A stretch of 64,000 nt of DNA, from assembly GCA_902560275.1 (NCBI GenBank), contig CACELJ010000001.1, positions 883 through 64,882 of the forward strand, read 5' to 3'. Positions 21,486-45,856 of this stretch are shown here, piece by piece. The DNA comes from an uncultured SAR86 cluster bacterium. Lineage in GTDB: Bacteria > Pseudomonadota > Gammaproteobacteria > Magnimaribacterales > AG-339-G14. The stretch's first letter is position 1. Every line of letters begins with the position of its first letter. Under the pieces are notes generated by a model. It was not told the origin of the DNA. It ran no database searches and worked only from the letters and a program-made list of their open reading frames with translations. Both the position numbers and the translations under genes were made by a program.

Positions 21486-21499
21486 TCTTTAAATAAAGA

Positions 21500-21536
21500 A
21501 AAAGCCTCTTTAAATTATGGAAAGAGGCTTTTTTTA
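21500..21536 (+). terminator. rho-independent terminator after the first TonB-dependent receptor
   Basis: AAGCCTCTTT (21502-21511) pairs with AAAGAGGCTT (21521-21530), followed by a T run. Confidence 0.8.
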
Positions 21537-21680
21537 TATCTAAATATTTGATCAAAAATGCAATAAAAACGTTTAATTTTGTCTTAATTTGCTATAGATT
21601 AACGTTAATTAGTCTAAGTTGGGAGACTTAGAAACAATTACAAGGAAGTTTCAAACTCAAAACAAAAAAAGGGGAATGTT

Positions 21681-24695: not shown

Positions 24696-26403
24696 TTTTA
24701 GAAAATATCTGCAAAAAACCCTGATTTTTATCGGGGTTTTTTGTATCTTATTTTCTTGTTCTTACGGACAAGACTCATCAATCATCACTATTCAGCAAGG
24801 TAAATTAAAAGGCTTGGAGCATGATGATGGCACTATAAAATATTTTGGTATCCCTTATGCGAAAGCTCCAGTTGGCAATCTTCGTTGGAAGGAACCTTTG
24901 CCTCATGAAGGATGGGAGGGAACTTTTTTTGCAGAATCTCATGGTAAAGCATGCATGCAGCCACTTGAATTATTGACTCCTGATGGAAAACTGACTGGCA
25001 ATAATGGTTTTTACGATCTTATTATAGAAAAGTCAGGCTTAGATATTCCATCTGATGAATCTCAAAATAATGCAGGATTTAATCGTTTTACATACGATGA
25101 TATGTCCGAGGACTGTTTATTTCTAAACATTGTTGTTCCTAAAGGCGGCTCTGCTAACAAACCGGTAATGTTTTGGATCCATGGCGGAGCTTCAAGGTGG
25201 GGGTCTGGGCATGAAAGTAATTACACAAGTCAATATATTCCCACAGAGGGGGACGTCATCGTGGTGAGTATAAATTATCGACTGGGGGTTTTTGCCTGGT
25301 TGGCTCATCCAGAATTATCAAGAGAGTCAGAAAAAAACGTTTCTGGAAATTATGGAACTTTAGATCAAATAGCAGCTCTAAAGTGGGTTAAAGATAATAT
25401 TGCAAATTTTGGTGGAGACCCAAACAACATAACCATTTTTGGTGAATCGGCTGGGGGACAAGCTGTGACGTCTTTGATGATAAGTCCATTATCGAAAGGA
25501 TTGTTTCACAAAGCCATTGCTCAAAGTGGCACCGGATTACCGAATGTTTTAACTGATATCAGAGAAGATAAAGGGATATTAGTTTCCGCCGAGTCAAAAG
25601 GTATCAAGTTAGCTGAATATTTTTTAGGAGAAAATGCCAATATAAATGATTTAAGGGAATTGCCAGCCCTGGAAATTGTTTCCATTGATGATTTCCAACT
25701 CGATCAAGACTTAATTATGATGACAAATCAAATTGTTGACGGATATGTTTTCCCTGAATCTATAAAAGATGCTTTTATAAATCAAAATGTCCACGATTTA
25801 CCTTTTATGGTCGGATTCAACGGAGATGAGGGGACAAGCCTATTTCCATTGATTATTGATCCAAAAACTTTCAGTTTATTCGGCGAGTTTTGGCCTGAAA
25901 GTCTTTGGGCTTTTGTTAACCCTGATCCATCATCCTTCCAAGGTCCAAAAGGAATGAGAGATTTTGCATTAAGCTTGGATGACAATTATTACGATGCTGC
26001 AACGGATTTCTGGGGATTTTTATTTTTTGGTGCTCCCTCTTATTTTGTTGCAAAGCAACATTCATTATCTGGAAATCCGACTTATCTTTATCAATTTGAT
26101 AAGAAACCTAATATTCCTAATGATTATCTTGGCGCCACGCATGCTCTTGAACTTGGTTATCTATTTAATAAAGGCGGATTATTCGGCATAGAAGGATCTT
26201 TTGATGATTCTGATATTGAACTTGCTCAGAAAATGCGAGCGGATTGGATTAATTTTGCAAAAAATGGCTCTCCAAATATTGCCGAAAGATTTGATCATAT
26301 CAGTTCGAATGCAAGAATTTATGACTCTTTCATTGAAGATAAGAAAATAGAGCACTCTGATTTTTATAAGTCCTACTCAAATTTTTGGGAAAATCTAAAT
26401 TAG
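24667..26403 (+). CDS. carboxylesterase type B family, probable lipoprotein (start uncertain: TTG 24667 or TTG 24679)
   Basis: EDCLFLNIVVP, WIHGGA, and nucleophile elbow FGESAGG. The N-terminus LIFIGVFCILFSCSYGQ looks like a signal peptide with a lipobox Cys. Confidence 0.85.
   Translation: MELELVTISNFRKYLQKTLIFIGVFCILFSCSYGQDSSIITIQQGKLKGLEHDDGTIKYFGIPYAKAPVGNLRWKEPLPHEGWEGTFFAESHGKACMQPLELLTPDGKLTGNNGFYDLIIEKSGLDIPSDESQNNAGFNRFTYDDMSEDCLFLNIVVPKGGSANKPVMFWIHGGASRWGSGHESNYTSQYIPTEGDVIVVSINYRLGVFAWLAHPELSRESEKNVSGNYGTLDQIAALKWVKDNIANFGGDPNNITIFGESAGGQAVTSLMISPLSKGLFHKAIAQSGTGLPNVLTDIREDKGILVSAESKGIKLAEYFLGENANINDLRELPALEIVSIDDFQLDQDLIMMTNQIVDGYVFPESIKDAFINQNVHDLPFMVGFNGDEGTSLFPLIIDPKTFSLFGEFWPESLWAFVNPDPSSFQGPKGMRDFALSLDDNYYDAATDFWGFLFFGAPSYFVAKQHSLSGNPTYLYQFDKKPNIPNDYLGATHALELGYLFNKGGLFGIEGSFDDSDIELAQKMRADWINFAKNGSPNIAERFDHISSNARIYDSFIEDKKIEHSDFYKSYSNFWENLN
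24713..24742 (+). terminator. terminator-like hairpin just after the stop of the second TonB-dependent receptor
   Basis: AAAAAACCCTG (24713-24723) pairs with CGGGGTTTTTT (24732-24742). It lies inside the putative signal-peptide coding part of the next ORF. Confidence 0.6.
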
Positions 26404-26519
26404 ATTATTGACTTACTCAAAGAAATAATTTTAGAAAAATATAAATTCATTTAATTTTTCTCTTTTTTAGGATAGATTACTTTTTTAAATTTAACGATTT
26501 ATTCTAAACAAGGAGCGTT

Positions 26520-29500
26520 ATGCATAAATTTTCAATTAATTTAATACTTTTCTATTTATTTTTCTCTTCACCCTTCGCAATTGTCCAAGATTCTGATGGA
26601 TTAGAAGAAATTATTGTAACTGCGCAAAGACAAGAACAAAGTCTGCAAGACGTTCCTTTAGCAGTATCTTCATTCTCTGGAGATGATCTATTGGAGCAAC
26701 AGATCGAAGGAATTAATGACATGCAATTGTTTGTTCCTGGACTTAGGTTTGGTGGAAATATTGGTGAAGGTGGAGGAGATATTGAAATAAGGGGAATGGT
26801 GAATGGAGCAGTATCAGGTACAGCAGATTCAGCAGTTGGAGTTCATATTAATGACTTAGCAGTGGGAATAACACCTCTTGATACTGGCCAGCTTTTTGAT
26901 ATGGAAAGAGTTGAGATAATCAGAGGTCCTGCAGGAACTTTATATGGAAGAAATGCTATTGGTGGATCATTGAATATGATTACGGCAAAAGCAGATCCAA
27001 CTTCTTTTTCTGGGAAAGTTAGTGTTGATCTTGGAGATTATGGAAGATTTGGCACTACTTCAGTTATAAATATTCCTCTTGATGACAATGCAGCCTTTAG
27101 ATTTGCTTCAACAACTTTGAAGCAAGATGGCCTAGTAGATAACATTTATAGCAAAGGACTCGATTATAACTTGGATAACAGAAATCAAATGGGATACAGA
27201 GCTACCCTAAGTTTCGAACCTTCTGAAAAAACTACAATTCATATTGTTCATCAAGCTCAGATTGAAGATTCAAAAAGAACGCTTACTTCAGGAACTTGGT
27301 GTGACAGAGATCCTTCCGCAGTCTTTGGTTGCACAATGCAAGCACCTGAAAATCAAAAATTTGAGATTGCGCATCCCATGTCCACGTTAGTTGAACAACT
27401 TCTCATAGCACAAGGAGTTTTAAACTACACTCCGATAACTAGTCTGGCTGGAGCTCCTCAAGAATTATGGACGATGAACGTCAGAAACGAACCTGTATAT
27501 ACCGTTGACGAATATATTACTCAATTCATCGTAGACCATGATATAAATGACGAACTATCCTTATCTGTTGCTGCGAGCAGAAAAGATAGAAAGTTTTATA
27601 GGTTAGAGGCTTACGAATCTCCAGAGTTAGATACATTAAGATTTAACGATACTCCCGTAACTCCTGGCGGTATTGGAACTATGTCTGCAAGTATCGATTC
27701 AAATTGTTCAGTCGAAGGCTACACTGCTGGTTTTTATGGTGGATGCATTTTGGATACACTGAACTATCCTACAGGAGCATTTAACTATAGTTCTCTGGCT
27801 GATACGGATGCAGTTGAAATGAAACTAGTTTCTAGTTTTGATGGACCTCATAATTTTCTATTCGGTATGAATTATTTTAAAAATTATCAAGATACGGATA
27901 CAGATGTTGTGGCTTCTGGTCTAGATGCATTAACTGTGGCTCCACCTGCAGCAATGATAGGTACTCAAGCAGCTAGTCTTGGAGCACAACTTTACGCACC
28001 ATTTTTTAGAACAGCCAATATCGATGTAATAGAATCAACCGCCGTATTTGGTGAATATTACTTTGATGTGCGTGACGACCTAAAATTAACCGTTGGCATG
28101 AGATACACAGATGACTTTAAAGAAGCAGGTCCGAGTAATCCGTCATTTAATATATTAGGTTACGCCAAAGGTAATATCACAGATGCTGCAGCTTCAGCTT
28201 GGACTGGTGGATTAGTTCCATCTGCCGCAGCCTGGGAAGCTTTATTTTGTCCTATAGGCGCCACTTTTTGCCCAGTTCCAGAATCCGCTATTCCTGGCAA
28301 CAAAGTTCCCGCACCAGGAGAAGCTTACAGAGCAGCAGGGCTAGAAACCACTAGAGAAACTTCAGAATTTACTGGAAGGATTGTTTTAGACTACTTTATA
28401 AATCAAGATTCAATGATGTTTGTTTCCTTTTCCACTGGATTCAAAGGCGGTGGGATTAATCCTGGGTTTGATCCTACAAGTTTTGCTGGCGTTCCAACTG
28501 GATTTCCAAATTCAGAAGTAAATAATCTTGAAATAGGTTTCAAAAATGAATTCCCAGACCAAGGGGTAAGACTTAATGTTTCTGCTTACTATAGTGATAT
28601 TGAAAATTACCATATCACACAAATTAAAAATAGAACCTCAGTAAACGAGGGTATTGATGTTGAAATCATGGGTGCCGAGGCTGATTTACTTTACATGCCA
28701 CCTGAAGTCCCTGGTTTTTCCCTGAATGCTTCTCTCAGTTATACATCTTCTGAGATCAATGATGGAGAAGGTTCTATTGATATGGTTAATAGAGATTTAC
28801 AATTAACAGGAGGAGTAGGCTCAACTGATTGGCACACTGTTAAAGATCAAGTTTCAGAAACTTTTATCATCAGAAAAACTGCTTTGCAGGCCATGTGGAC
28901 TAGTTATTTACAAGAGATAGCAACCTCTGGTGCAGCAGTGACTCCTGCAGATGGCATATCTGCCTTAAATCCAACTCTTGACGGTTTAACCCTTGCAAGT
29001 TTGGTGTTTTTTAATCCCGTTGAACATCACGGTGATAGAACTTTTGGAGAACCAACTCCAGTAAGCTATTGGAACCCATTAGCTGGTCAAAACCCTGCTG
29101 ATGGTCATCTACCCTCGGTATTAAATAGAGCTTCAGGCCTTCACCAGATTCTAGCTCAACTGCATGGATTTGATCTGGTTCCTGGTTCTGATATTAGTGA
29201 AGGTTTAGTGAGTGATGTTTCAGGTAATTCTTTATTTCATCCCGAACTGCAAGCTAATCTTGGTATAGGATACTTACAAGATATTGGAAATCTAAAAATT
29301 AATTATCGTCTGGATTATTCATATCAGGGAGAAAGATATTTAAGAGTATTTAATCTTCCAAGTGACGTCCTAGAGGCTTGGGATGAGTTAGGCGCCCAAA
29401 TTACTCTATCTAGTTCAGATGATTCTTGGTTTGTTCAATTTTATGGACAAAACATAACTGACAACAATAGCTATTATTATAGAGAACTTCAAAGTACCGC

Positions 29501-29573
29501 TGTAGGAAACTATCAGAGGATAATGGCTAGAGAAAGGGCTAGATATGGAATAAGGCTTGGTTATAATTTTTAA
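26520..29573 (+). CDS. TonB-dependent receptor (1017 aa), paralogue of 21681..24695
   Basis: EEIIVTAQRQEQSLQDVPLAV, FDMERVEIIRGPAGTLYGRN, VQFYGQNITD, and terminal ...LGYNF. Confidence 0.9.
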   Translation: MHKFSINLILFYLFFSSPFAIVQDSDGLEEIIVTAQRQEQSLQDVPLAVSSFSGDDLLEQQIEGINDMQLFVPGLRFGGNIGEGGGDIEIRGMVNGAVSGTADSAVGVHINDLAVGITPLDTGQLFDMERVEIIRGPAGTLYGRNAIGGSLNMITAKADPTSFSGKVSVDLGDYGRFGTTSVINIPLDDNAAFRFASTTLKQDGLVDNIYSKGLDYNLDNRNQMGYRATLSFEPSEKTTIHIVHQAQIEDSKRTLTSGTWCDRDPSAVFGCTMQAPENQKFEIAHPMSTLVEQLLIAQGVLNYTPITSLAGAPQELWTMNVRNEPVYTVDEYITQFIVDHDINDELSLSVAASRKDRKFYRLEAYESPELDTLRFNDTPVTPGGIGTMSASIDSNCSVEGYTAGFYGGCILDTLNYPTGAFNYSSLADTDAVEMKLVSSFDGPHNFLFGMNYFKNYQDTDTDVVASGLDALTVAPPAAMIGTQAASLGAQLYAPFFRTANIDVIESTAVFGEYYFDVRDDLKLTVGMRYTDDFKEAGPSNPSFNILGYAKGNITDAAASAWTGGLVPSAAAWEALFCPIGATFCPVPESAIPGNKVPAPGEAYRAAGLETTRETSEFTGRIVLDYFINQDSMMFVSFSTGFKGGGINPGFDPTSFAGVPTGFPNSEVNNLEIGFKNEFPDQGVRLNVSAYYSDIENYHITQIKNRTSVNEGIDVEIMGAEADLLYMPPEVPGFSLNASLSYTSSEINDGEGSIDMVNRDLQLTGGVGSTDWHTVKDQVSETFIIRKTALQAMWTSYLQEIATSGAAVTPADGISALNPTLDGLTLASLVFFNPVEHHGDRTFGEPTPVSYWNPLAGQNPADGHLPSVLNRASGLHQILAQLHGFDLVPGSDISEGLVSDVSGNSLFHPELQANLGIGYLQDIGNLKINYRLDYSYQGERYLRVFNLPSDVLEAWDELGAQITLSSSDDSWFVQFYGQNITDNNSYYYRELQSTAVGNYQRIMARERARYGIRLGYNF

Positions 29574-29660: not shown

Positions 29661-30674
29661 ATGATTAAACACATCAACAATATTGCTGGAATCTTAATTC
29701 TTCTTAATATTTTTGATCAGATTTTGTCGTCTAGCAAAATTATTCCTGAAAATTTCTATTTTGATATATTTGTTATAGCTTCTTATCTTTTTTTTGGTGC
29801 TGAATTTATTGCAAGAATTATCATTGAAAGAAGATTCTCTTTCCTGTTAGTTTTTGATTTTGTGGTTCTGGCTAATTATATTTTCTTTGGATTTTATGAT
29901 TTGAGAATATTAAGAATTTTTAGGGCTTATTCAATTTACAGTAATCATAAGATGTTACTTCCAACAAATACTTTGTTGAGAACTGTGTATAACCAGCGTT
30001 TAGCATTATTAGGGTCCCAGATAATGGTATTTTCAGTCCTTTTGATTTTTTCTACTTTAATTCACTTTATAGAAAGAGATATTAACCCAGAATATTTTGG
30101 TTCTATTCTCAATTCAATGTGGTTTGGAATTGCTACTTTAACCACAGTCGGTTATGGAGATGTAACTCCATCATCTCCATTAGGCCAAGTTCTGACTTCT
30201 TTAACTATGTTTCTGGGTATAGGTATGTTTGCTTTACCTGCTGCAATCTTAGCCTCAGCCTATTATGAGGAAATTCAAAAAAGAAACTTCCTTATCACAA
30301 TGGAAACAATATCCAGTATCCCTCTATTTTCAATGTTACCCATAGGGGCTTTGAGTAAAATTAACGATAAATTAGTTGCTGAAATTTATCCGGCCAAAAG
30401 AAAAATTATAGAAAAAGGTGATGAGGCAGATTGCATGTACATTATTGAGTTTGGATCTGTTCAAGTAGAAATAGAATCTCCTGTGACTTTAGGGCAGGGT
30501 GATTATTTTGGTGAAAAAGGAATTCTTTCTAAAGAAGTTCGTAATGCATCTATAAGCTCTATAGAAGAAGTGAAATTACTTTCTCTGTCAAAAGATGATT
30601 TAGAAGAACTAATGGAAGATTATCCTCATCTTTTTGAAGAGCTAGAAAAAGTTAGTTTAGACAGAAAAGGTTAA
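29661..30674 (+). CDS. cyclic-nucleotide-gated K+ channel (6-TM, MloK1-like)
   Basis: K+ selectivity filter TTVGYGD. S4-like LRILRIFRAY. C-terminal cNMP-binding domain with GDYFGEKGIL...VRNASI (FGE and the phosphate-binding Arg). Confidence 0.85.
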   Translation: MIKHINNIAGILILLNIFDQILSSSKIIPENFYFDIFVIASYLFFGAEFIARIIIERRFSFLLVFDFVVLANYIFFGFYDLRILRIFRAYSIYSNHKMLLPTNTLLRTVYNQRLALLGSQIMVFSVLLIFSTLIHFIERDINPEYFGSILNSMWFGIATLTTVGYGDVTPSSPLGQVLTSLTMFLGIGMFALPAAILASAYYEEIQKRNFLITMETISSIPLFSMLPIGALSKINDKLVAEIYPAKRKIIEKGDEADCMYIIEFGSVQVEIESPVTLGQGDYFGEKGILSKEVRNASISSIEEVKLLSLSKDDLEELMEDYPHLFEELEKVSLDRKG

Positions 30675-31423
30675 TTAAAAGAATAAGAAAACTTTGTACT
30701 AAGACCTTGATCATCTTCAACGGCGTTAGTAATAGGATCTGAATCGTATGCTATATCGTATTGAAGGCTGATACTAAATTTTTCATTTACCAGAAAGTTA
30801 AATGCCATAAGAAAACTTGCTTTATAGTCACTGAAATCACTGACTCCCGGTTGATAATAAATCGTAGTGTTAAAGTTTACATTTTCAGCAACTTCAAAAT
30901 TATCATGAAAATAAGCAGAAAGCCTTGTTGTATTTGTTACAAAGTCGTCTAAATCAGTTTCTTCTTCATATATCACTCCAGCTCCAAATCTCATTTGATC
31001 ATCTATAATCATTCTAAGACCAGTCCCAAATAAATTTCTTTCTCTAAAAAGCCTAAATGGATTTTTCGCTGACTGAATAAAGAATTCTGTATTGTACTGA
31101 TTGTAAGTTTCGAAAACTGATCTTATATGAATGAGTTGAGAAATATCCGTGACGTTTTGATTTATTTTCCTTTCAGATTTTCTCAGAATCATGAAGTTTT
31201 CAACGTCATCAAGGTTATAGTCAAACCTTAAATCAAAAGAATAGAAATCTCTGTCTCTGTTACCTCTGGAAGCATTTAAAGAAAATCCAAGGCCAGCAAA
31301 AAATCCTTCCTTACCCTCATTTCTTAACTCTTCAATATTCACTATAGTCTGAGAAATAGCAAATGAGGGCAAGAGTAATGAAATAAAGAAGAATTTATTT
31401 AGTTGTTGCAACATACGCTCCAT
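30671..31423 (-). CDS. outer-membrane beta-barrel protein, DUF481/YdiY-like
   Basis: Signal peptide followed by alternating-hydrophobic strands. It resembles YdiY in LNASRGNRD and the C-terminal ISLQYDIAYDSDP...FSYSFN. Its start overlaps the upstream cyclase stop. Confidence 0.55.
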   Translation of the reverse strand: MERMLQQLNKFFFISLLLPSFAISQTIVNIEELRNEGKEGFFAGLGFSLNASRGNRDRDFYSFDLRFDYNLDDVENFMILRKSERKINQNVTDISQLIHIRSVFETYNQYNTEFFIQSAKNPFRLFRERNLFGTGLRMIIDDQMRFGAGVIYEEETDLDDFVTNTTRLSAYFHDNFEVAENVNFNTTIYYQPGVSDFSDYKASFLMAFNFLVNEKFSISLQYDIAYDSDPITNAVEDDQGLSTKFSYSFN

Positions 31424-33578
31424 TCCAATTCGGATCAGTTAAATTAAGTTTCATATCCTTAATCCTGTCTTTAAAAATAGCGTAGTATAAATCAAACTCC
31501 ACAACTTGTTCTTCCCATTTTTTAATAAAGTTTAATGCTAGATCCCATCGTTGGTTTCTATAATTCTCTAGAAATTTATTATGATCATTTTGAAATTCAA
31601 TTAATTCTTCATCATCTAATGAGAATTTATCAAAAGAAGTATAAATTTTAACTGGCTCAGTTTTCCCTTTAACTTGAATAAAGTCTAGTTCAAAAAGATT
31701 AGATTTTGACTTGAGGGTATTCACAGTTTCTTGTCCAAGAATTCTTTGAAAACCATAAGTTCCTGATTGACCTTCTAATCTTGACGCCAAATTAACTGGA
31801 TCTCCTAAGACGGTATAATCAAATCTTTTTTCTGATCCCATATTCCCAACAATACATTCACCAGTATTAATACCAATTCCGATTTTAAGTTCCATTCCTT
31901 TTTCTTTTTGGAATTCAATATTAAAGTTTTCTAACGCCTTTTCCATATCAAAAGATGCTTTTAGAGCTAAATCCGTATGATTTTCTTGATCTGTAGGTGC
32001 ATTCCAGAATGCCATGATGCAATCACCCATATATTTATCAATTGTTCCTTCATTATCCAAAATTTCATTAGACAAAACTGTAAGAAGTTTATTTATCAGT
32101 TCAGTTAATTCTTCTGGATTAGATTTGTAACTTTCTGATATAGCTGTGAACCCTCGTATGTCAGAAAAAAGAAAAGTCATAGTTTTCTTCTCTCCTCCCA
32201 ATTTAAGTGATTCACTTGATTCTGCAAGTCTCGAAACCATTTCTGGAGCAAGATATTGAGAAAAAGCTGTTCTAACTTTACTACGTTCCAACTCAGTAAA
32301 AAGAAAATTAAAAAATGTGATTATCAAGTAACTCAATAAACATATTATTAATGGAGAAATTGGATCTATTAAAAAATCTAATTGATTGAAACCATAGAAA
32401 GAACCATAGAGACTACTTAAATTTGCCACTAAGAATGTAATTAATCCCCCGATAGGTCCAAAATATTGAATGACCAAGCAAATCAAGATGGAAAAAAGTA
32501 AACCAAATAAAAATTCTGCTCCTTCCATCCAATCTGGTCTTACTAAAAAATCTCCATTTATAATTTGTTGAATGCCTTGAGCTATGATTGTTACGCCAGG
32601 TATATCTCGCTCTAAAGAGGTATTTCTTATGTCGAGCAGTCCAGACGCGCTAGTTCCTATAAGAACAATTTTTCCAGCAAAGAAATCTTTATCAAAAGAA
32701 TTATTTATGACTTTAGCCGCAGGAATGATATTCAAGTTTTCCTTATAAGTAGAATGCAACCAAAGGTAACCGTTTGAATTAGTGGGAATAATTACGTTTC
32801 CTAATTTTATGTTATTAATCCCAGTGCTCTCACCAAACGCTAACTCTCCTGATGCATTTGATGACTTGATTTGATAAGTACTTGCTCCGATAGCAACCCT
32901 AAGGGTCTCTAGCATCAACGAAGGTACTATCTGTCCATTCACTACTTCAAATGTGGGGAGGCTTCTAACAATACTTGAATCACCCCCAATACTCATAGAC
33001 CCTATGCCCGCCGCAGAATCAACTAGAGACGGTAAGTTATTTTGCATTCCTATGTAATTAGGAAGAAATTCATTTGGTGAATCACCCTGAATTATTAGAC
33101 CGTATTTAGGTTTTACTTCTAAGGTTTTTAATTTATTATTTGGTGCACTTCCTAAGACAACAGTAGAGTGTGACTCCATAGATTCAGCAAATATTTTGTC
33201 GTTTGGCTTTATCTTTTTTAACTCTTTAATTAGTTCTGTATTTGTTGAATATTGTTCAGTTAGAACATCACTTCCAGTTCTATCTCTTTCTGCAAAGACG
33301 ATATCAAATGATGTAGTTAAAGCTCGCTCTGTGTTACTCACTAATTGAGAAAGAAGATCTCTTGACCAAGGCCATTGACCTAAACTATTGAGAGACTCAT
33401 CATCAATATCAATTATTACTACTGGATCGTCCTCTAAAGGTTCTCTTGGACTTATTTGTTGTAGAGTATCAAAAGCAAATAATCTTAAATCATTAAAAAT
33501 ATTTAATGGATTTGCTAATGGAATTAGACCAATTAAAATGGCTAAAGGCAGAAGTAATTTTTTTTGAATGTTCTTCAT
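31395..33578 (-). CDS. CHASE2-domain sensor adenylate cyclase (class III)
   Basis: N-terminal TM helix, a ~330-aa periplasmic region and a TM cluster give the CHASE2 architecture. Cyclase core motifs: TFLFSDIRGFT, IDKYMGDCIMAFWNAP, IGINTGECIVGNMG, DYTVLGDPVNLASRLE. Confidence 0.85.
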   Translation of the reverse strand: MKNIQKKLLLPLAILIGLIPLANPLNIFNDLRLFAFDTLQQISPREPLEDDPVVIIDIDDESLNSLGQWPWSRDLLSQLVSNTERALTTSFDIVFAERDRTGSDVLTEQYSTNTELIKELKKIKPNDKIFAESMESHSTVVLGSAPNNKLKTLEVKPKYGLIIQGDSPNEFLPNYIGMQNNLPSLVDSAAGIGSMSIGGDSSIVRSLPTFEVVNGQIVPSLMLETLRVAIGASTYQIKSSNASGELAFGESTGINNIKLGNVIIPTNSNGYLWLHSTYKENLNIIPAAKVINNSFDKDFFAGKIVLIGTSASGLLDIRNTSLERDIPGVTIIAQGIQQIINGDFLVRPDWMEGAEFLFGLLFSILICLVIQYFGPIGGLITFLVANLSSLYGSFYGFNQLDFLIDPISPLIICLLSYLIITFFNFLFTELERSKVRTAFSQYLAPEMVSRLAESSESLKLGGEKKTMTFLFSDIRGFTAISESYKSNPEELTELINKLLTVLSNEILDNEGTIDKYMGDCIMAFWNAPTDQENHTDLALKASFDMEKALENFNIEFQKEKGMELKIGIGINTGECIVGNMGSEKRFDYTVLGDPVNLASRLEGQSGTYGFQRILGQETVNTLKSKSNLFELDFIQVKGKTEPVKIYTSFDKFSLDDEELIEFQNDHNKFLENYRNQRWDLALNFIKKWEEQVVEFDLYYAIFKDRIKDMKLNLTDPNWNGAYVATTK

Positions 33579-34970: not shown

Positions 34971-35696
34971 ATGAATCAAATAGTCCAATTTTTTCTAAAA
35001 ATCAGAAATAGTCGCTTTTTTAATGGAATAGTAATTTTTGTAATAATTGGCTCTGCTATTTATGCCGGAGTCAGTTCCTACGACCTTTCGGAAGAATACG
35101 TTGGATTGCTAAATTTTCTTGATACCGCAATAACAGTTTTCTTCCTAGTAGAGATTATTATCAGAATAGTCGCAGAAAGATCACTGATAAAATTCTTTAA
35201 AGGCGGTTGGAATGTCTTCGATTTCATCATCGTTACGGTCAGTTTAATTCCAATCACCGGAGGAGAGACAGCATTCGTTGCAAGACTGCTTAGAATTGTC
35301 AGGGTATTAAGAATTATCACCGTAGTGCCTGCATTGAAGAAAATTGTCGATGCGTTGTTTGAAACGCTTCCAAGAGTTGGTTTTGTGGCTCTTCTAATGT
35401 TCATTTTCATATATATATGGGCTGCTATAGGAACTTTAGTTTTTGGAACAACAGATCCAGAACATTGGGGTAATATTGGTCTAGCTATGCTTACTCTTGC
35501 GCAAGTTGCTACATACGATGACTGGGCTGCAGTTATGAAAGATATAATTGAAGTTTTTCCTTGGGTATGGATTTACTTTATTAGTTTCATTCTTCTTAAT
35601 GCCGTAATCATGTTGAATATGGTCATTGGTATCATTGTTGATGTAATGTCTAAGAAATCTAGCAGCGGCCAATTAAGTGCAGATGAGAATCAATAA
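34971..35696 (+). CDS. voltage-gated cation channel, BacNaV (NaChBac/NavAb) family, with a T-Y-D-D-W pore filter
   Basis: 241 aa with 6 TM segments. S4 is ARLLRIVRVLRIITVVPALKKIV, with four Arg at every third position. The pore is LTLAQVATYDDWAAVM. S6 is ILLNAVIMLNMVIGIIVDVM. Confidence 0.8.
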   Translation: MNQIVQFFLKIRNSRFFNGIVIFVIIGSAIYAGVSSYDLSEEYVGLLNFLDTAITVFFLVEIIIRIVAERSLIKFFKGGWNVFDFIIVTVSLIPITGGETAFVARLLRIVRVLRIITVVPALKKIVDALFETLPRVGFVALLMFIFIYIWAAIGTLVFGTTDPEHWGNIGLAMLTLAQVATYDDWAAVMKDIIEVFPWVWIYFISFILLNAVIMLNMVIGIIVDVMSKKSSSGQLSADENQ

Positions 35697-39408: not shown

Positions 39409-40098
39409 TCAATCGTATGTTTTTGCTACTGATGTCATATTCAATCTTACTAAAGATCTAAAATTATCAGCTCTAGTTAAAAACTTTGCATACGCTTTAT
39501 TAGGAGCAGGATTATTTACAGACTCCATTGCTGTCGCAAGGTCTGGATAACCACAATACGCCATATGCGTACCGTATTTTTCAGGATTAGTTCCAGGCCC
39601 GAAAGATGCGACTCCCCAAGAACTTGGACACTGACCATTTGAAGTTTGCTCTTCCATCAATTCTGTATAAGCTTTCACGTAAGCTGAAGGATCAGTAACA
39701 TTAAGTAAGAAGACAGTGAAAACCTGATCTTTCATTACATCTCCTCCTCCAACTACTGGAAATCCTAAAGCTTGATTTGTTTGCTCAGATATAGAACTCA
39801 TTGATTGAAAATATTTTCCCCAACCTGGGCAAGTTTGAACTTGGTTAGACCATTCAACATAATCTGCATTATTCTCATAAAAAACAACGTAAGTATGTGT
39901 TGTGTCATCATCTCCGTTTAAATTTTCAGCCATTAATCTAACTACAGTATCATTTGGACAATCTTTGGTTAATTGATCTGTAGCTTGAACTACTCCAATA
40001 GGATTTTCTGTTTTTATTCCAAAAAATCCAAAAAATGGTCCGTCTCCAGCAATTAAAGGTATGCTCAGAAAACTAATTAAAATTAATATTTTTTTCAT
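39409..40098 (-). CDS. secreted two-repeat protein, uncharacterised family, paralogue 1
   Basis: I prefer the start at Met13 (MKKILILISFLSIPLIAG) because AGGAGA lies upstream. It aligns with 41114..41842 and 45086..45811 (see findings). Confidence 0.6.
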   Translation of the reverse strand: MKKILILISFLSIPLIAGDGPFFGFFGIKTENPIGVVQATDQLTKDCPNDTVVRLMAENLNGDDDTTHTYVVFYENNADYVEWSNQVQTCPGWGKYFQSMSSISEQTNQALGFPVVGGGDVMKDQVFTVFLLNVTDPSAYVKAYTELMEEQTSNGQCPSSWGVASFGPGTNPEKYGTHMAYCGYPDLATAMESVNNPAPNKAYAKFLTRADNFRSLVRLNMTSVAKTYD

Positions 40099-40219
40099 AA
40101 TATCTCCTATATTAACTTCACTAATATATAACATTAGTAATATTCATAAAATAGAATTAATGTAAATATTGTGCAAAATATTTAAAATATTAATTATTAA
40201 TTTTTAAAAGGGAGTGGTG

Positions 40220-41026
40220 ATGTCTGATCTATTAAAAAAAGAAAATTTGAAAGAGGGTGTTTCAATATTAACTCTCAATAGACCGGAAGTATTGAATAGC
40301 TTAAATAAAGAACTTATAGATGCTTTATTGGAGGCATTTGATGAAATCTATCACGATAATTCAATCAGGTCGGTAATTATTACTGGTGAAGGCAGAGGAT
40401 TTTGCAGTGGAGCTGACTTAGCAGGTGGTGGTTGGCCAAGTGACCCTAAATGGTCTCCGGGAGAGTCTACAGCTAATGCAATGGAGATAGGTTTTAATCC
40501 TTTAGTAAGAAAAATTGTTGAATGTCCAAAGCCTGTCGTCATTGCAATTAATGGAATATCTGCTGGAGGAGGAGTTGGGTTAGCCCTTTGTGGTGATTTG
40601 ATAATCGCATCTGAGTCTGCAAAATTTAAACTCGTTTTTGGTCCACAACTAGGAATTATTTCTGATGTCGGCGCATCTTGGCTAATTCCAAATTTACTTG
40701 GTAGAGCAAGAGCAAACGGAATGGCACTTTTAGGTGAAGACATAGACTCAAATAAAGCTTTAAATTGGGGATTGGTTTGGGAAGTTTTTCCAGATAATGA
40801 GTTAAAAGAAAAGGCTATAGAGTACGCAATTCAATTAGCTAATGGATCTATTACAGGGTTAAAAGCTATTGTCAGGGCTCATGATAATGCTCTTAAAAAC
40901 ACTCTTAATGAACAACTTGATTACGAAAGAGATACTCAACGAATCCTTTGTGATGGAGATGTATTTAAAGAAGGTGTAACTGCTTTTATTGAAAAAAGGA
41001 AACCAAATTTTAGAGACATAGAATAA
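40220..41026 (+). CDS. enoyl-CoA hydratase/isomerase (crotonase) family protein
   Basis: ITGEGRGFCSGADL oxyanion motif, INGISAGGGVGLAL, and C-terminal FIEKRKPNF. GGAG lies 5 nt before the ATG at 40220. Confidence 0.85.
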   Translation: MSDLLKKENLKEGVSILTLNRPEVLNSLNKELIDALLEAFDEIYHDNSIRSVIITGEGRGFCSGADLAGGGWPSDPKWSPGESTANAMEIGFNPLVRKIVECPKPVVIAINGISAGGGVGLALCGDLIIASESAKFKLVFGPQLGIISDVGASWLIPNLLGRARANGMALLGEDIDSNKALNWGLVWEVFPDNELKEKAIEYAIQLANGSITGLKAIVRAHDNALKNTLNEQLDYERDTQRILCDGDVFKEGVTAFIEKRKPNFRDIE

Positions 41027-41113
41027 GTTTAATAAACAATAAATTAATAATTTATTTTCCTCAAAGAAGAATAAATGATACATAATTAATTTTTAATATA
41101 GGAGATATTAATT

Positions 41114-41842
41114 ATGAAAAAACTATTAATTTTAGTTTCTTTGATTATCACTTCATATTCTCATGCTGCTCCAATTTGGGCAGAGTTTCAAATAGAAGTC
41201 GATGATCCAATAAAAGCAGCAAGTATTGCTGCTGCAACTGACAGATACATGAAAAGTGATTTTGTTAAAAAAAACTTTAATGGGTCTGTACACTTGAATG
41301 TATATGTATCTAATGGAGATAATCCAGCAACACATTCCTTAGTTTGGCTATTTCCAAGCATGACTGATGCATCTGTTTTTCAAACTAAATCATTAGATCC
41401 TTCAAATAGAGCTTCGCAAGAATTTTTTAGTGCTCTAAGTCAAAATTCTGAAGCAACTTCAGATTTAATGCATACCTTTGTCACTTCTTGGGGAAATGCC
41501 TCCAATAAAGACAGAGTTTGGGAGATTCACAATTTTTATGCCACTGATGCAGGAAAGGTTGTCAATCTTACCAATAAAATGATGGCTTCCATGGATGGGT
41601 TCCCAGGGCAGCTTGGTCTATCACAAAATACCTATGGAAATGGCGATACTTCTCACGCATTTACTGTTGGATTCGAATCTATTGAAGAAATGGAAGGTTG
41701 GCAAGATAAGTTAGCAACAGATCCGGTCTTTAATAAATGGCTTGTTGATATGGGTAAAGTTGTAGAATGGAAGGGCTCTGAATTAGTGGTAAATGCTGCT
41801 GTTTATGACTCTGCATTAACTATAGAAGAATTCGTTCAATAA
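41114..41842 (+). CDS. secreted two-repeat protein, uncharacterised family, paralogue 2
   Basis: Signal peptide MKKLLILVSLIITSYSHA. It has the same length and repeat pattern as paralogues 1 and 3. Confidence 0.6.
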   Translation: MKKLLILVSLIITSYSHAAPIWAEFQIEVDDPIKAASIAAATDRYMKSDFVKKNFNGSVHLNVYVSNGDNPATHSLVWLFPSMTDASVFQTKSLDPSNRASQEFFSALSQNSEATSDLMHTFVTSWGNASNKDRVWEIHNFYATDAGKVVNLTNKMMASMDGFPGQLGLSQNTYGNGDTSHAFTVGFESIEEMEGWQDKLATDPVFNKWLVDMGKVVEWKGSELVVNAAVYDSALTIEEFVQ

Positions 41843-41853
41843 GATCAGCTTAT

Positions 41854-41885
41854 AAAAATACCCGTTTTTGACGGGTATTTTTTTT
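41854..41885. terminator. bidirectional rho-independent terminator
   Basis: AAAAATACCCG (41854-41864), N7, then CGGGTATTTTTTTT (41872-41885). Confidence 0.8.
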
Positions 41886-42621
41886 AATCGGACTTTTCCC
41901 AATGAAATTTAGGTAATTTTCTGACTCCTTTATCTATTTGTTCTGCCCAAATATCTGATAATTCCTTAAAGAAAGGAGAATCAAGTTTAAGTTGTTCTTG
42001 AAAATCCAAATTAATTTCATCTTTTTTAAAAACAACTAAATCAATAGGAGGTCCTACTGTCAGATCTGATCTCATCGTTGAGTCTAAAGAAAGTAGTGCG
42101 ACACGTGCTGCATCACCCAATGAAATATTTTGATAGATCATCCTATCGAGGATGGGTTTACCGTATTTAATTTCACCGATTTGTAAATAAGGCTGATCAT
42201 CTGACATATAAATAAAATTTCCTTCAGGATAAACAAGCAATAAATTTGGATCTTGTCCTTTTATTTGGCCACCAACTATAAAATAAGAACCAAGCAAAGC
42301 AGATCCTTGATTTAAATGTTCTTGGGCTTTAGATTGATACTCAACGTTTAGTTCACCGATATAAGTAGCAACTTCCTCTATATCTGCGCAGGTATTTAAG
42401 CTTTTTGCTGCATTTTTGGATTCTAAATCTTTTTCAATTCTGTGATAAACAGCTTGCGAGGTAGATAGATTTCCTGATGTTAAGATAACAAAAGCTCTGT
42501 CGCCCACATTAAATGTAAACATTTTTGAGTATGTGCTTATGTTATCAAGCCCAGCATTAGTTCTTGAATCAGAAGCAAATACTAATCCATCATTTATTTT
42601 TATTGCTAAACAATAGGTCAT
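41884..42621 (-). CDS. Anbu (ancestral beta-subunit) proteasome-type peptidase
   Basis: MTYCLAIKINDGLVFASDSRTNAG places Thr2 as the N-terminal nucleophile after Met removal. Length is 245 aa. It is adjacent to circularly permuted ATP-grasp and alpha-E genes. Confidence 0.8.
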   Translation of the reverse strand: MTYCLAIKINDGLVFASDSRTNAGLDNISTYSKMFTFNVGDRAFVILTSGNLSTSQAVYHRIEKDLESKNAAKSLNTCADIEEVATYIGELNVEYQSKAQEHLNQGSALLGSYFIVGGQIKGQDPNLLLVYPEGNFIYMSDDQPYLQIGEIKYGKPILDRMIYQNISLGDAARVALLSLDSTMRSDLTVGPPIDLVVFKKDEINLDFQEQLKLDSPFFKELSDIWAEQIDKGVRKLPKFHWEKSD

Positions 42622-42676
42622 TTTTCAATCTAAATGGATGTTATATTCAAAAAATAGGAGATAAGTAAATAACAAA

Positions 42677-44116
42677 ATGAAACTTTCATGGTCTAAATAT
42701 GAGCTATCTAAATCGTACGATGAGTATATTACACCAAAGCGCACTGTTAGAGGTCACTTAAGAAAAATTGGAAATTTTTTTGAATCTCTTTCATTTAATG
42801 ACCTACAAGAACTTGATAGCGCAACAAAATCTGCTATCAAATCAATGGGTATCAATTTTCGAGTTTATTCAGATGAAGGTTCTGAAGAACGAACATGGCC
42901 TTTAGATTTTATTCCTAGAATTATAAAAAAAAGTGAGTGGAACGTTGTCGAAAAGGGACTAAAACAAAGAACTAAAGCACTCAATTATTTTATTGAGGAT
43001 TGTTATAACGAACAAAGTTTTCTTAATTCCGGAATCATCAATAAATCTTTGATAACTAAATCTAAGTATTTTTTAAAATTTTGCAAAGGAACTAAATTAC
43101 CTAATAAATCTTGGGCTCATATTTCTGGCAGTGATCTCATAAAAGATATAAACGGAGACTTTCATGTTCTTGAAGATAACTTGAGGGTACCATCAGGAGT
43201 TTCTTATATGCTAGAAAACAGATACGTCATGAAGAGAGTTTTTCCTGATTTATTTTCACACTATGGTGTCTCAAAGATAGATGAATATCCTACAAAACTT
43301 TATGAATGTTTACTTGATGCATCTTTTTCGAAATTAAAAAATCCTGAAATTGTTCTCCTCACACCAGGTATTTATAACTCAGCATATTATGAACATTCAT
43401 ATTTAGCGCAACAAATGGGAATAGACCTAGTTCAAGGTTCGGATTTAATCGTTAAGAAAAATATAGTTTATAAAAAAACAATCGAGGGGCTTAAAAAGGT
43501 TGACGTAATTTATAGGAGGATTGATGACGACTATCTTGATCCAGAGGTAGGTAATCCATTTAGCGTTATAGGAGTGAAAGGATTGATTAGAGCTTGGAAA
43601 AGCAAAAATGTTTCTATTGTGAATGCACCAGGTTGCGGAATTGCTGACGATAAGGCCGTTTATTCTTTTGTTCCAGAAATGATCAATTTCTATCTGAAAG
43701 AAGAACCTATTCTGCCAAATATTAAAACTTTCATGCTTTCAAATAAAGAGGAAAGAGATTACGTATTTGAAAACATTAAACAAATGGTTACTAAACCTGT
43801 TGCTGAGTCAGGTGGATATGGAATTTCAATAGGTAAAAATTTAAATGAAAAAGAAATACTAAAATTAAAAAAATTACTAATGAAGGACCCTAAAAACTAT
43901 GTTGCTCAACCACTTATAGACTTATCAACATCGCCAACATTTAGAAGAGATTCTTTATTTCCAAGACATTTGGATTTAAGACCGTTTATTCTGTCTGGGA
44001 AGCAAACCTATGTGACAGTTGGTGGCCTTACCAGAGTTGCACTTAAAAGAGGTTCAACTGTCGTAAATTCCTCTCAAGGCGGAGGAAGCAAAGATACTTG
44101 GATAGTAGATGCATAA
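42677..44116 (+). CDS. circularly permuted type-2 ATP-grasp protein (COG2308-like)
   Basis: 479 aa. It pairs with a translationally coupled alpha-E gene and lies next to Anbu. It has ...VVNSSQGGGSKDTWI near the C-terminus. Confidence 0.75.
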   Translation: MKLSWSKYELSKSYDEYITPKRTVRGHLRKIGNFFESLSFNDLQELDSATKSAIKSMGINFRVYSDEGSEERTWPLDFIPRIIKKSEWNVVEKGLKQRTKALNYFIEDCYNEQSFLNSGIINKSLITKSKYFLKFCKGTKLPNKSWAHISGSDLIKDINGDFHVLEDNLRVPSGVSYMLENRYVMKRVFPDLFSHYGVSKIDEYPTKLYECLLDASFSKLKNPEIVLLTPGIYNSAYYEHSYLAQQMGIDLVQGSDLIVKKNIVYKKTIEGLKKVDVIYRRIDDDYLDPEVGNPFSVIGVKGLIRAWKSKNVSIVNAPGCGIADDKAVYSFVPEMINFYLKEEPILPNIKTFMLSNKEERDYVFENIKQMVTKPVAESGGYGISIGKNLNEKEILKLKKLLMKDPKNYVAQPLIDLSTSPTFRRDSLFPRHLDLRPFILSGKQTYVTVGGLTRVALKRGSTVVNSSQGGGSKDTWIVDA

Positions 44117-45027
44117 TGTTAAGTAGGAGTGCAAAACATTTATATTGGCTCGCCCGATACGTAGAAAGAGCTGAAAATATTGCAAGAATGATTGATGTAA
44201 ATCTTGAGCTAATTTTAGATTTTCCTGACGATCATTCTTTAAACTGGAAACCTTTAATTGATACTTTAGATATTAATGATTTATTTGAAAACAAATATAA
44301 AAAATATAACGAAAACAATGTTTTAAATTTTTTGTTTGAAGATAAAAAAAATCTAAGTTCTCTTAATAATTGCTTGGAGATGTCTAAATATAATATAGAA
44401 ACCATAAAAGATGATTTACCTAAAACTGCTAATATAAGTCTGAATCATCTTTACGATCATATTCTTGGTCAAAAAATCTCTAAAGTTCACCAACGAAAGA
44501 AACTGCAACATATAACAAATATAGTTTCAATGACTCAAAATTTTTTTGGCGCTATAAATGATAATCTCTCCAGAGGATATGAGTTTGAATTCATTAGATT
44601 AGGTAGATTTGTTGAGAGAACAGATATGATATCCAGAATTATTGATTGCTTATGTATTTCAAAAGGTTCTAAACAAACTCATGATTTTTCTACGATGGAA
44701 TGGATTAGCATGCTTTCAACACTCTCAGCACAAGATGCATTCAGGAAGGAATCTAAAGGAGAAGCGAATAGGGGAGAAGTGATAACTTTTTTACTTAAGA
44801 ATGACAGTTTTCCTAGATCAGTATTTCGAAGTCTAATCACTATTGAAGCATGTTTGGAAAATCTTCCTAAAAATACAAAGTTACTACAAATGATAAATAG
44901 GATAATCAATATTTCTGAGAGATCTAAATTATATAATTTTGATGATAGAAGACTACATTTATTCCTAGATAACCTTCAAAAAAATGTATCTAAAATTGAT
45001 TCTAAGATTCACACTACTTATTTTTAA
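44116..45027 (+). CDS. alpha-E domain protein (COG2307-like)
   Basis: MLSRSAKHLYWLARYVERAENIARMIDV is the typical alpha-E N-terminus. The ATG overlaps the upstream TAA (TAATG). Confidence 0.75.
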   Translation: MLSRSAKHLYWLARYVERAENIARMIDVNLELILDFPDDHSLNWKPLIDTLDINDLFENKYKKYNENNVLNFLFEDKKNLSSLNNCLEMSKYNIETIKDDLPKTANISLNHLYDHILGQKISKVHQRKKLQHITNIVSMTQNFFGAINDNLSRGYEFEFIRLGRFVERTDMISRIIDCLCISKGSKQTHDFSTMEWISMLSTLSAQDAFRKESKGEANRGEVITFLLKNDSFPRSVFRSLITIEACLENLPKNTKLLQMINRIINISERSKLYNFDDRRLHLFLDNLQKNVSKIDSKIHTTYF

Positions 45028-45085
45028 AAAGTATTAGAAATAAGTTTTTTTTTCGTCATAATCAATTAATAAAAGGAGAAAAAAA

Positions 45086-45811
45086 ATGAGAAAAATTTTA
45101 TTTTCAATATTGATTACTATTTTTTCAGTAAACATATTTTCAGATGATCATGGTATTAAACCTGGAAATGTTGTTGCTGAATTTCATTACTTTGATGTAA
45201 CCGATCCAATGTCTTTTGTAGCAACAGTTGATAAATTTGATGTATCTTCTTGTGCACAAGAGTGGAGAGAAAAATCAGGTGTAAATATTGGTCTTTATGC
45301 GCTTGGTGGCGGAAGTCATTCTCATCTTATACTCGTGGTTTACGATGATTTTGATCAAATGCAACTAGGGAGGTCTATTTTTGGAGCATGCCAAGAATCG
45401 GCTCAGATGATCAAAAGCATGGATACTAGTTCTAATTCTCACATGTATTATAACTTTGTAACAGAATTAGCTCTTGAATCAGGAGATTGGAGAACGGATA
45501 CAGTTTTTGCTAACGTCGACATAAAGGTTGAATCTGGAGAAGAGGCTAAATATTTGAAAGCTTGGGTAGATTTCATGGAGTCACAAGAAAGTGTAGGTTC
45601 TTTTGGAATTAACCGAATCCTCTTTGGAAACAAATACTACACTCATATGATCTATTTAGGTTCTAATTCCTTGAGTGAACTTACAAATTCCATGAAAACT
45701 GCATTTAGTTCGAGAGACTATCAAACTTATTTAAATAAAGTGGAAGATATTCGAACGAATGTTCAAACAAGAATGGCTCAATTTGTAAAAGCATATCCTA
45801 ACGAAAGATAA
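45086..45811 (+). CDS. secreted two-repeat protein, uncharacterised family, paralogue 3
   Basis: Signal peptide MRKILFSILITIFSVNIFS, with AAGGAGA upstream. It aligns with paralogues 1 and 2. Confidence 0.6.
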   Translation: MRKILFSILITIFSVNIFSDDHGIKPGNVVAEFHYFDVTDPMSFVATVDKFDVSSCAQEWREKSGVNIGLYALGGGSHSHLILVVYDDFDQMQLGRSIFGACQESAQMIKSMDTSSNSHMYYNFVTELALESGDWRTDTVFANVDIKVESGEEAKYLKAWVDFMESQESVGSFGINRILFGNKYYTHMIYLGSNSLSELTNSMKTAFSSRDYQTYLNKVEDIRTNVQTRMAQFVKAYPNER

Positions 45812-45824
45812 GGATAATATTAAT

Positions 45825-45856
45825 AAAAAATACCCGATTTATTCGGGTATTTTTTA
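45825..45856. terminator. bidirectional rho-independent terminator
   Basis: AAAAAATACCCG (45825-45836), N7, then CGGGTATTTTTT (45844-45855). Confidence 0.8.

Follow-up and report, generated by a model that had tools for sequence, protein, structure and literature searches.

Three divergent genes at one SAR86 locus belong to an abundant, unannotated family of probable exported two-repeat alpha+beta barrels

In the surface ocean, SAR86 ranks among the most abundant heterotrophs that have not been cultured, with a small, streamlined genome, and a locus at which such a genome holds three divergent versions of one gene raises the question of what the encoded proteins are and how they came to stand together. 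The locus lies in a 64,000-nucleotide stretch of contig CACELJ010000001.1 (the window), where open reading frames (ORFs) at 39409-40098 on the minus strand and at 41114-41842 and 45086-45811 on the plus strand encode the proteins labelled P1, P2 and P3. An original prediction, made from the sequence of the window, had placed three ORFs at these positions, where they are indeed found, and had described them as paralogues of an uncharacterised secreted two-repeat protein that arose by repeated local duplication next to the genes of an Anbu (proteasome-like) cluster. The analysis described here shows that they belong to a genuine, abundant and unannotated family, which sits inside a very large and well-known fold superfamily, beside an existing domain of unknown function (DUF), and nothing was found that points to a new mechanism.

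By BLASTP, P1 aligns with P3 over the full length (E 1e-11) and with P2 (E 5e-8), and the comparison of P2 with P3 by BLASTP alone is not significant. In order to avoid circularity, a separate profile was built for each copy from its own metagenomic homologues, and comparison of these profiles with hhalign joins the P1 group to the P3 group (E 2.9e-16 across 196 columns) and to the P2 group (E 1.4e-14 across 193 columns). Since the P2 and P3 groups give just E 1.4e-3 with each other while both match P1 strongly, P2 and P3 are tied transitively, via P1. By these profile comparisons P1, P2 and P3 are homologous, as had been predicted, and chance similarity among them and non-gene status were both excluded. 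The same approach, applied to the two halves of the proteins, gives a match between the N-half and C-half profiles with a probability of 98% (E 3e-13) for 13 sequences and of 99.7% (E 3e-26) for 107 sequences, in alignments that pair His with His, and on this profile evidence the internal duplication behind the predicted two-repeat architecture is real.

The sequence motifs quoted in the original prediction are present, and the [TS]-H pair recurs in each half in about 97% of the 107 aligned sequences. No columns of this alignment are more informative than those of His68 and His178 (numbered as in the P1 precursor; 104/107 and 103/107), each His being preceded by T or S (104/107 in the N half, 102/107 in the C half). 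A conserved Gly stands in the N-half hairpin that precedes the His (102/107), and a D or N, usually followed by Pro, marks the junction of strand 1 and helix 1 (77/107 in the N half, 99/107 in the C half). In the structural models, the motif His is the first residue of strand 3.

These models were made with AlphaFold2 (AF2) and are confident for mature P1 (predicted local distance difference test, pLDDT, 91; predicted template-modelling score, pTM, 0.85) and for P2 (pLDDT 87, pTM 0.81), with the same order of elements, E-H-E-E-H-H-E, twice per chain (E, strand; H, helix). Both models thus have two ferredoxin-like units on the same chain. In the dimeric alpha+beta barrel superfamily, beta-alpha-beta-beta-alpha-beta units of this kind pair through their sheets, and the placement there follows from this element order, from the homology of the halves and from Foldseek matches. 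Against the PDB, Foldseek returns 2pgc as the top match for both models (E 3e-9 to 1e-8), with template-modelling (TM) scores of 0.72/0.75 and a root-mean-square deviation (rmsd) of 3.6 A over 215 columns for P1, and with TM 0.73/0.80 and rmsd 3.3 A for P2. A second tier consists of the tandem ABM-type structures 3f44, 3mcs, 5f9p and PenE 9kdp (TM 0.55-0.70), and more distant matches include chlorite dismutase (Cld), coproheme decarboxylase (ChdC/HemQ), sulfur oxygenase reductase (SOR) and DyP (E 1e-8 to 1e-5); every significant match has the tandem alpha+beta barrel architecture. The models therefore strongly support a reading in which the two ferredoxin-like halves of each protein pair within one chain as a pseudo-dimer, so that one polypeptide makes up a whole 'dimeric alpha+beta barrel', in agreement with the tandem ferredoxin-like domain that had been predicted. 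The parts of the three proteins are as follows.

39409..40098, minus strand: P1 precursor, 229 aa, stop codon 39409-39411 (ORF listing)
40045..40098, minus strand: P1 signal peptide MKKILILISFLSIPLIAG, residues 1-18, as read from the sequence
39733..40044, minus strand: P1 N-terminal ferredoxin-like half, residues 19-122 (AF2 and half-against-half hhalign), with TENP at residues 30-33, T67-H68 (His codon 39895-39897) and the Cys47/Cys90 pair (codons 39958-39960 and 39829-39831); AF2 elements in mature numbering E4-12, H15-28, E34-41, E50-56, H59-71, H73-85, E86-100
39412..39732, minus strand: P1 C-terminal ferredoxin-like half, residues 123-229 (AF2 and conservation table), with VTDP at 134-137, T177-H178 (His codon 39565-39567) and a second, subclade-specific Cys pair, C157 and C182; AF2 elements in mature numbering E108-116, H119-135, E143-148, E160-166, H169-176, H183-192, E196-210
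41114..41842, plus strand: P2 precursor, 242 aa, without Cys and the most divergent of the three (ORF listing)
41114..41167, plus strand: P2 signal peptide
41168..41506, plus strand: P2 N half, with motif His H74 (41333-41335)
41507..41839, plus strand: P2 C half, with motif His H181 (41654-41656)
45086..45811, plus strand: P3 precursor, 241 aa, with the Cys pair C56/C102 (ORF listing)
45086..45142, plus strand: P3 signal peptide
45143..45493, plus strand: P3 N half, with motif His H80 (45323-45325)
45494..45808, plus strand: P3 C half, with motif His H187 (45644-45646)

For P1, an upstream ATG is possible, which would extend the ORF to 40134 (241 aa); because AGGAGA lies 4 nt before the ATG at 40098 and most P1 homologues start at MKK, the start at 40098 is upheld. 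All three genes have AGGAGA or AAGGAGA 4-8 nt 5' of the ATG. A scan of all six frames of the window with the family hidden Markov model (HMM) found exactly these three copies and no fourth, and a 241-aa ORF at 34971-35696, considered as a further copy, was rejected as an ion channel.

With the fold in hand, the place of the family among described sequences can be considered. Neither P1, P2 nor P3 reaches a Pfam or NCBIfam threshold, and matches to MerB, MbtH, Csa4, PH and flavodoxin (E 0.03-0.15) were rejected as noise. The structure 2pgc itself belongs to DUF6854 (PF21614), to which its aligned fragment scores 109.6 bits. P1-P3 give no match to this DUF at E<=1 and stay below its gathering cutoff of 27 bits; 11 of the 107 family members match it weakly (best E 1.3e-5), two distant members scanned singly score 13.5 and 16.3 bits, and the sole query to pass is the family consensus, an artificial sequence, with 33 bits in two matched stretches. 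The consensus also passes DUF1330 barely (23.6 bits against a cutoff of 23) and falls below the NIPSNAP cutoff (19.8 against 22.3 bits), where consensus positions 51-94 align with NIPSNAP positions 47-93, from strand 3 to helix 2 and including the His. NIPSNAP is matched weakly by 8 of the 107 members (best E 2.1e-5; one scanned singly at 19.3 bits) and by none of P1-P3. ABM (PF03992) is matched by none of the 107 members and not by the consensus, and the likeness to it is structural only. An NCBIfam scan with the consensus returned nothing, and no Pfam or PDB sequence match was found to chlorite dismutase, coproheme decarboxylase or DyP (together, CDE). When the PDB was searched by sequence with the profiles of 13 and of 107 sequences, and with the consensus of a single domain, no match was significant, 2pgc reaching E 0.086; matches to arabinofuranosidase (E 0.025-0.04), a different, beta-propeller-type protein, were rejected as chance.

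Taken together, sequence and structure agree that DUF6854/2pgc is the nearest described family, of which P1-P3 are remote relatives and not Pfam-level members, and a remote relationship of the family to DUF6854, NIPSNAP and DUF1330 is strongly supported. The original prediction had recognised no named family, which holds for the individual proteins and not for the family consensus; the sensitive profile and structure searches that it called for led to no well-characterised family, DUF6854/2pgc being a domain of unknown function.

The family is large. A HMMER search with the 13-sequence profile against 1.84 billion cluster representatives found at least 443 clusters at 50% identity with E<=1e-3, 250 at <=1e-10 and 49 at <=1e-30, nearly all of them 225-255 aa long and with the profile beginning 20-35 residues in. 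The source name is 'hypothetical protein' in every case seen, the sources are Tara, ENA and JGI marine metagenomes and metagenome-assembled genomes (MAGs) of Gammaproteobacteria or SAR86, including Pseudomonadales-type ones, and some clusters hold hundreds of metagenomic members. A scan of genomes used a pattern of the P1 subfamily, and the taxonomic picture is therefore biased towards SAR86; with this P1-subfamily pattern no relative was found on viral contigs.

Export had been predicted as well. P1, P2, P3 and the family consensus MKKILLLLLALLLLLLLSAAALA all carry the pattern of a Sec-type leader, with a basic n-region (KK in P1), a hydrophobic core and small residues at -3/-1, and the P1 signal peptide has no lipobox Cys. 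The two aligned Cys noted for P1 and P3 are real, and the pair covaries across the family: in the 107-sequence alignment Cys47 is found in 24 sequences and Cys90 in 24, and the same 24 carry both. Mature Cys counts are mostly even, at 0 in 72 sequences, 2 in 29, 4 in 3 and 1 in 3. A disulfide is thus likely in about a quarter of members, where it would connect the junction of helices 2 and 3 in the N half with the end of helix 1. The Cys pattern, the Sec-type N-termini and the missing lipobox together point to a soluble and probably Sec-exported family, presumably periplasmic or secreted.

The history proposed for the three genes fares differently. Each copy has relatives elsewhere, among cluster representatives, at 41-47% identity, while P1, P2 and P3 are mutually 13-24% identical, and P2 and P3 rank 103-105 of 106 for each other. 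Because the outside relatives are so much closer, P1, P2 and P3 are, judged by these identities, three ancient subfamilies and not recent duplicates, and recent tandem duplication was rejected from ranks and identities alike. The same block is present in a conspecific single-amplified genome (SAG), AG-896-P11 (L006), with flanking proteins 98-100% identical and a P1 orthologue 95.6% identical. Between the window and this strain, the ratio of non-synonymous to synonymous substitution rates (dN/dS) is 0.059 for P1, 0.112 for P2 and 0 for P3, which is within the range of the flanking genes and therefore marks all three as constrained genes. Each copy is under purifying selection between strains, and positive selection, for which the original prediction, with its suggestion of a 'diversifying function', had asked a test, was rejected.

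What does vary is the gene content of one slot. Four sister SAR86 genomes (L008-L011) share nine flanking genes with the window at 90-99% identity. Their slot, with the enoyl-CoA hydratase gene on one side and the ceramidase-like gene on the other, is filled by three members of the family in tandem, which are 39%, 54% and 27% identical to P1. In L007, two copies occupy the hydratase slot, the Anbu/ATP-grasp/Alpha-E cluster is absent and a P3-type gene lies directly beside the hydratase gene. P2 is absent from L007-L011. Across the sister species, the hydratase-adjacent slot thus holds one to three different family members, while P3 is 96-97.5% identical in L008-L011 and 91.7% in L007, and its orthologues in L004-L011 (92-100% identical) always follow Alpha-E except in L007. 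Because slot contents differ while flanks are conserved, it is the gene content that varies and not the sequence of a given copy, and the surroundings of the hydratase gene, from the ceramidase-like side to the Anbu side, are shown to be a gene-content hot spot where family members are swapped, gained and lost. The predicted local change therefore survives as a turnover of copy number and identity at this slot, and not as recent duplication, diversifying selection or a link to Anbu.

Synonymous divergence (dS) is raised in the same place. Against L006 it is 0.32 for P1 and 0-0.22 for other genes of the block, and against L008 it is 1.2 for the hydratase gene and 0.14-0.54 for other flanking genes. 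The raised dS at P1 and the hydratase gene (39409-41026; L006, L008 and L009) suggests an old or imported haplotype at a variable slot. In L005 (ENA ERZ28548068, an 897-kb contig), which has a near-identical locus, many genes are fragmented, including P1, P2, CitMHS and the ceramidase-like gene; the fragments are most likely long-read frameshift errors and not pseudogenes.

P1 and P2 also share a leader, in spite of their divergence, and a hairpin follows P3.

40098..40114, minus strand: 17-nt leader TAATATAGGAGATATTA with the P1 Shine-Dalgarno sequence, its last base being the A of the P1 start codon
41094..41110, plus strand: identical 17-nt leader 5' of P2 (exact DNA match)
45824..45856, no strand assigned: palindromic hairpin with a perfect 14-bp stem and A and T runs on both sides (terminator scan)

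The leader TAATATAGGAGATATTA occurs exactly twice in the window, where chance would give 0.05 matches, and also precedes the P1-type gene of L007; the first 8 codons of P1 and P2 are nearly identical too, though the proteins are just 22% identical. This common leader may go back to an exchange of cassettes, or it may be no more than a strong ribosome-binding site that the genes have in common. The hairpin at 45824-45856 sits between the convergent P3 and GST genes and, from its sequence, is likely a bidirectional terminator that ends the ATP-grasp/Alpha-E/P3 direction of transcription.

The neighbours of the three genes in the window include genes for a ceramidase-like membrane protein, an enoyl-CoA hydratase, GST, a sulfatase and an alpha/beta hydrolase, and further those for Anbu, a circularly permuted ATP-grasp protein and Alpha-E (41884-45027), with the Anbu gene divergent from the ATP-grasp and Alpha-E genes. 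Farther off, the window holds three TonB-dependent receptor genes of about 1000 aa each with a carboxylesterase gene interleaved (18375-29573) and, near these receptors, genes for a CHASE2-adenylate/guanylate cyclase and a cNMP-gated ion channel (29661-33578), which are typical SAR86 content.

Elsewhere, other SAR86 loci of the family carry Ccm genes, a gene for a pyridoxal phosphate enzyme and enoyl-CoA hydratase, and a locus in a Pseudomonadales MAG carries thioredoxin, hydrolase and Sox genes. Of the 6 independent lineages examined, 4 have a GST or MAPEG gene no more than about 7 kb away, and the same loci also hold sulfatase, alpha/beta-hydrolase, P450, PhyH, enoyl-CoA hydratase and beta-lactamase-family genes, a context that weakly suggests catabolism or detoxification of hydrophobic or xenobiotic compounds.

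The family has a counterpart, family B, in other marine Gammaproteobacteria. Like the family described here, it consists of unannotated, apparently secreted two-repeat proteins with a predicted signal peptide (about 245-290 aa), and hhalign relates the two (probability 94.8%, E 5e-8); unlike it, family B has C-[TSE]-L/F..G at strand 1 and lacks the [TS]-H of the N half. One family-B member passes the NIPSNAP cutoff. No member lies in the window; its genes often adjoin members of the first family or lie within a few kb of them, sometimes as three tandem genes, at the following loci.

L018, 315-1082: family B
L020, 6262-7020 and 9671-10417: family B
L023, 4349-5221 and 6963-7706: family B
L026, 8736-11265: family B

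In two SAR86-like genomes, a 125-aa secreted single-domain relative is encoded directly 5' of a P1-type gene (L013:9567-9950 and L014:103-486); it is nearer to family B (E 1e-11 against the family-B HMM) and may be a half-size version that needs homodimerisation. Another relative, a 211-aa protein without signal peptide, adjoins the P1 orthologue of a SAR86 MAG (L001:7233-7868, minus strand). It aligns weakly with the family (hhalign E 0.0024, 154 columns), has no Pfam match and may represent tandem barrels of the 2pgc type that stay in the cytoplasm.

As to function, we tentatively propose, with somewhat less than even confidence, that the family consists of periplasmic single-chain alpha+beta barrels with two pseudo-symmetric pockets, marked in each case by a D/N...[TS]-His dyad, where a small organic molecule would be bound or transformed, and that its subfamilies differ in specificity. 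This proposal builds on the fold, the probable export, the constraint and the hot spot described above, and adds to them a pocket, a dyad geometry and a ligand, which we infer. In a ferredoxin-like sheet the strands are ordered 4-1-3-2, with strand 3 antiparallel to strand 1. The beginning of strand 3 is therefore next to the point where strand 1 ends, and in each half the [TS]-H and D/N-P motifs would be neighbours in space. By analogy with ABM-type barrels, each half would form a pocket between sheet and helices, with one conserved polar dyad at its mouth. The ligand, a small organic molecule that is probably hydrophobic or lipid-derived, would be bound in the periplasm or transformed there without a cofactor, and ligand specificity would differ between the subfamilies that reside in one genome. 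That a streamlined SAR86 genome retains three to four members of one probably exported family in about 6 kb, under purifying selection, suggests a role in periplasmic handling of substances.

Several points weigh against this proposal. Both 2pgc/DUF6854 and bacterial NIPSNAP are uncharacterised, so that knowing the fold does no more than limit the options. No [TS]-H motif occurs in 2pgc, and the motif is not tied to any known ABM active site; the adjacency of His and D/N-P is deduced from fold topology, and the dyad might have a structural role alone, such as that of a helix cap. Export, in turn, is read from a sequence pattern and not from a dedicated signal-peptide predictor. No conserved operon partner was found among the family loci examined, and the recurrence of GST/MAPEG genes comes from a small, non-independent sample of genomes in which such genes are common.

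The hot spot also admits a different reading, in which the family members would have neither a ligand site nor a catalytic one and would be non-enzymatic envelope proteins, such as a chaperone, a protein-protein adaptor of outer-membrane transporters or a surface-exposed target of a phage or predator, with cassette turnover as evasion or turnover of partners and not as a matter of substrate range. The confinement of turnover to one slot in a syntenic block that is otherwise 90-99% conserved fits such a role, as do the imported or old haplotypes suggested by raised dS at P1 and the hydratase gene, and eukaryotic NIPSNAP proteins are known as protein-binding signals. Strong purifying selection on each copy, however, with no excess of non-synonymous change between strains, and the 92-100% conservation of P3 across species argue in the other direction, the conserved residues form pseudo-symmetric polar dyads and not a surface patch, and the P1-subfamily pattern brought up no homologue on viral contigs; we regard an envelope role of this kind as unlikely.

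The proposal of a small-molecule barrel can also be taken further, to a broader reading in which the family and family B together would be an unrecognised class of periplasmic barrels specific to marine oligotrophic Gammaproteobacteria. They would form a modular set, with the dyad in both pockets, that carries hydrophobic or lipid-derived dissolved organic matter or acts on it as cofactor-free enzymes, and cassette swapping would tune its substrate range in streamlined SAR86 genomes. Subfamilies would then be exchanged between strains at the recombination hot spot, possibly aided by the shared 5' leader. In this full extent, the reading is a little less probable again than an envelope role.

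If the two invariant His were instead ligands of haem (bis-His) or of a metal, the proteins would resemble the tandem-barrel haem proteins (Cld, ChdC and DyP/EfeB) or SOR and would serve iron or haem handling in an iron-poor ocean. These His are the strongest conserved features of the family, Foldseek returns Cld, ChdC/HemQ, DyP and SOR among its significant matches, and three TonB-dependent receptors are encoded in the window. The TM scores to Cld, ChdC and DyP, normalised to the query, are only 0.48-0.58 with rmsd 5-8 A, as opposed to 0.72-0.80 for 2pgc, and in CDE proteins haem is ligated by one His, which only the C-terminal domain supplies, from a helix, as opposed to the His at the start of strand 3 in both halves of the family. 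With no sequence-level match to those families and no gene for haem or iron uptake next to the family in the loci examined, a haem or metal protein is improbable.

The Anbu genes are merely neighbours. Adjacency to them is confined to the lineage of the window: L007 keeps its P3-type gene without Anbu, and no Anbu-cluster genes were found at the other family loci (L001-L003 and L012-L028), and the link drawn in the original prediction is unlikely. In other bacteria a transglutaminase-like gene often stands where P3 sits, and none was seen in the annotated 35.9-50.7 kb of the window. That P3, possibly with P2, is an accessory of Anbu, ATP-grasp and Alpha-E, co-transcribed in the usual place of this gene, is nonetheless very improbable, since, although P3, on the same strand, begins 59 nt past Alpha-E, with no terminator-like site found by the terminator scan between the Alpha-E end (45027) and the P3 start (45086), with the strong hairpin after it and with the arrangement kept in L004-L006 and L008-L011, P3 appears to be exported while Anbu, ATP-grasp and Alpha-E have no signal peptides, and the P3-type gene of L007 is 92% identical in a genome without the cluster.

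The small-molecule barrel that we prefer can finally be compared with known systems, of which DUF6854/2pgc is the closest. In both, a single chain (about 205 aa in DUF6854/2pgc) forms two ferredoxin-like halves, and both are of marine origin, 2pgc being a Joint Center for Structural Genomics structure of a Global Ocean Sampling (GOS) protein without known function. They differ in that 2pgc has no [TS]-H in either half, that sequence identity is 11-14%, and that a predicted signal peptide and often a likely disulfide are found on the side of the family, the N-terminus of 2pgc not being seen. In a search of the literature on DUF6854, 2PGC, bacterial NIPSNAP and SAR86 metaproteomes, the only thing found was a one-line mention of 2pgc, where it counts among five structures that were solved for novel GOS families (PMC2557142).

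Tandem ABM (antibiotic biosynthesis monooxygenase-like) proteins, among them the anthrone-oxidase-like 5f9p, are likewise single-chain pseudo-dimeric alpha+beta barrels, of 210-240 aa, and serve as the working model, with a ligand pocket between sheet and helices and cofactor-free chemistry. They are cytoplasmic, as opposed to the probably exported family, whose [TS]-H and D/N-P signature cannot be mapped to known ABM catalytic residues. NIPSNAP (PF07978) and DUF1330 (PF07045) have, as in each half of the family, a ferredoxin-like domain of about 100 aa in the dimeric alpha/beta-barrel clan; neither has an established bacterial function, and the relationship gives the fold and not the mechanism. 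Human NIPSNAP1 presumably has a similar stretch, G-x4-V-V-H-H-L-W-x-Y-x-D-L, which is a lead and not a test. For the family itself, a fold is now assigned with confidence, along with a diagnostic motif, a likely disulfide and a variable locus that is defined. This makes it a tractable target for expression, ligand screens and crystallisation, and it would offer a way into the function of DUF6854/2pgc, which has been an orphan of structural genomics since 2007.

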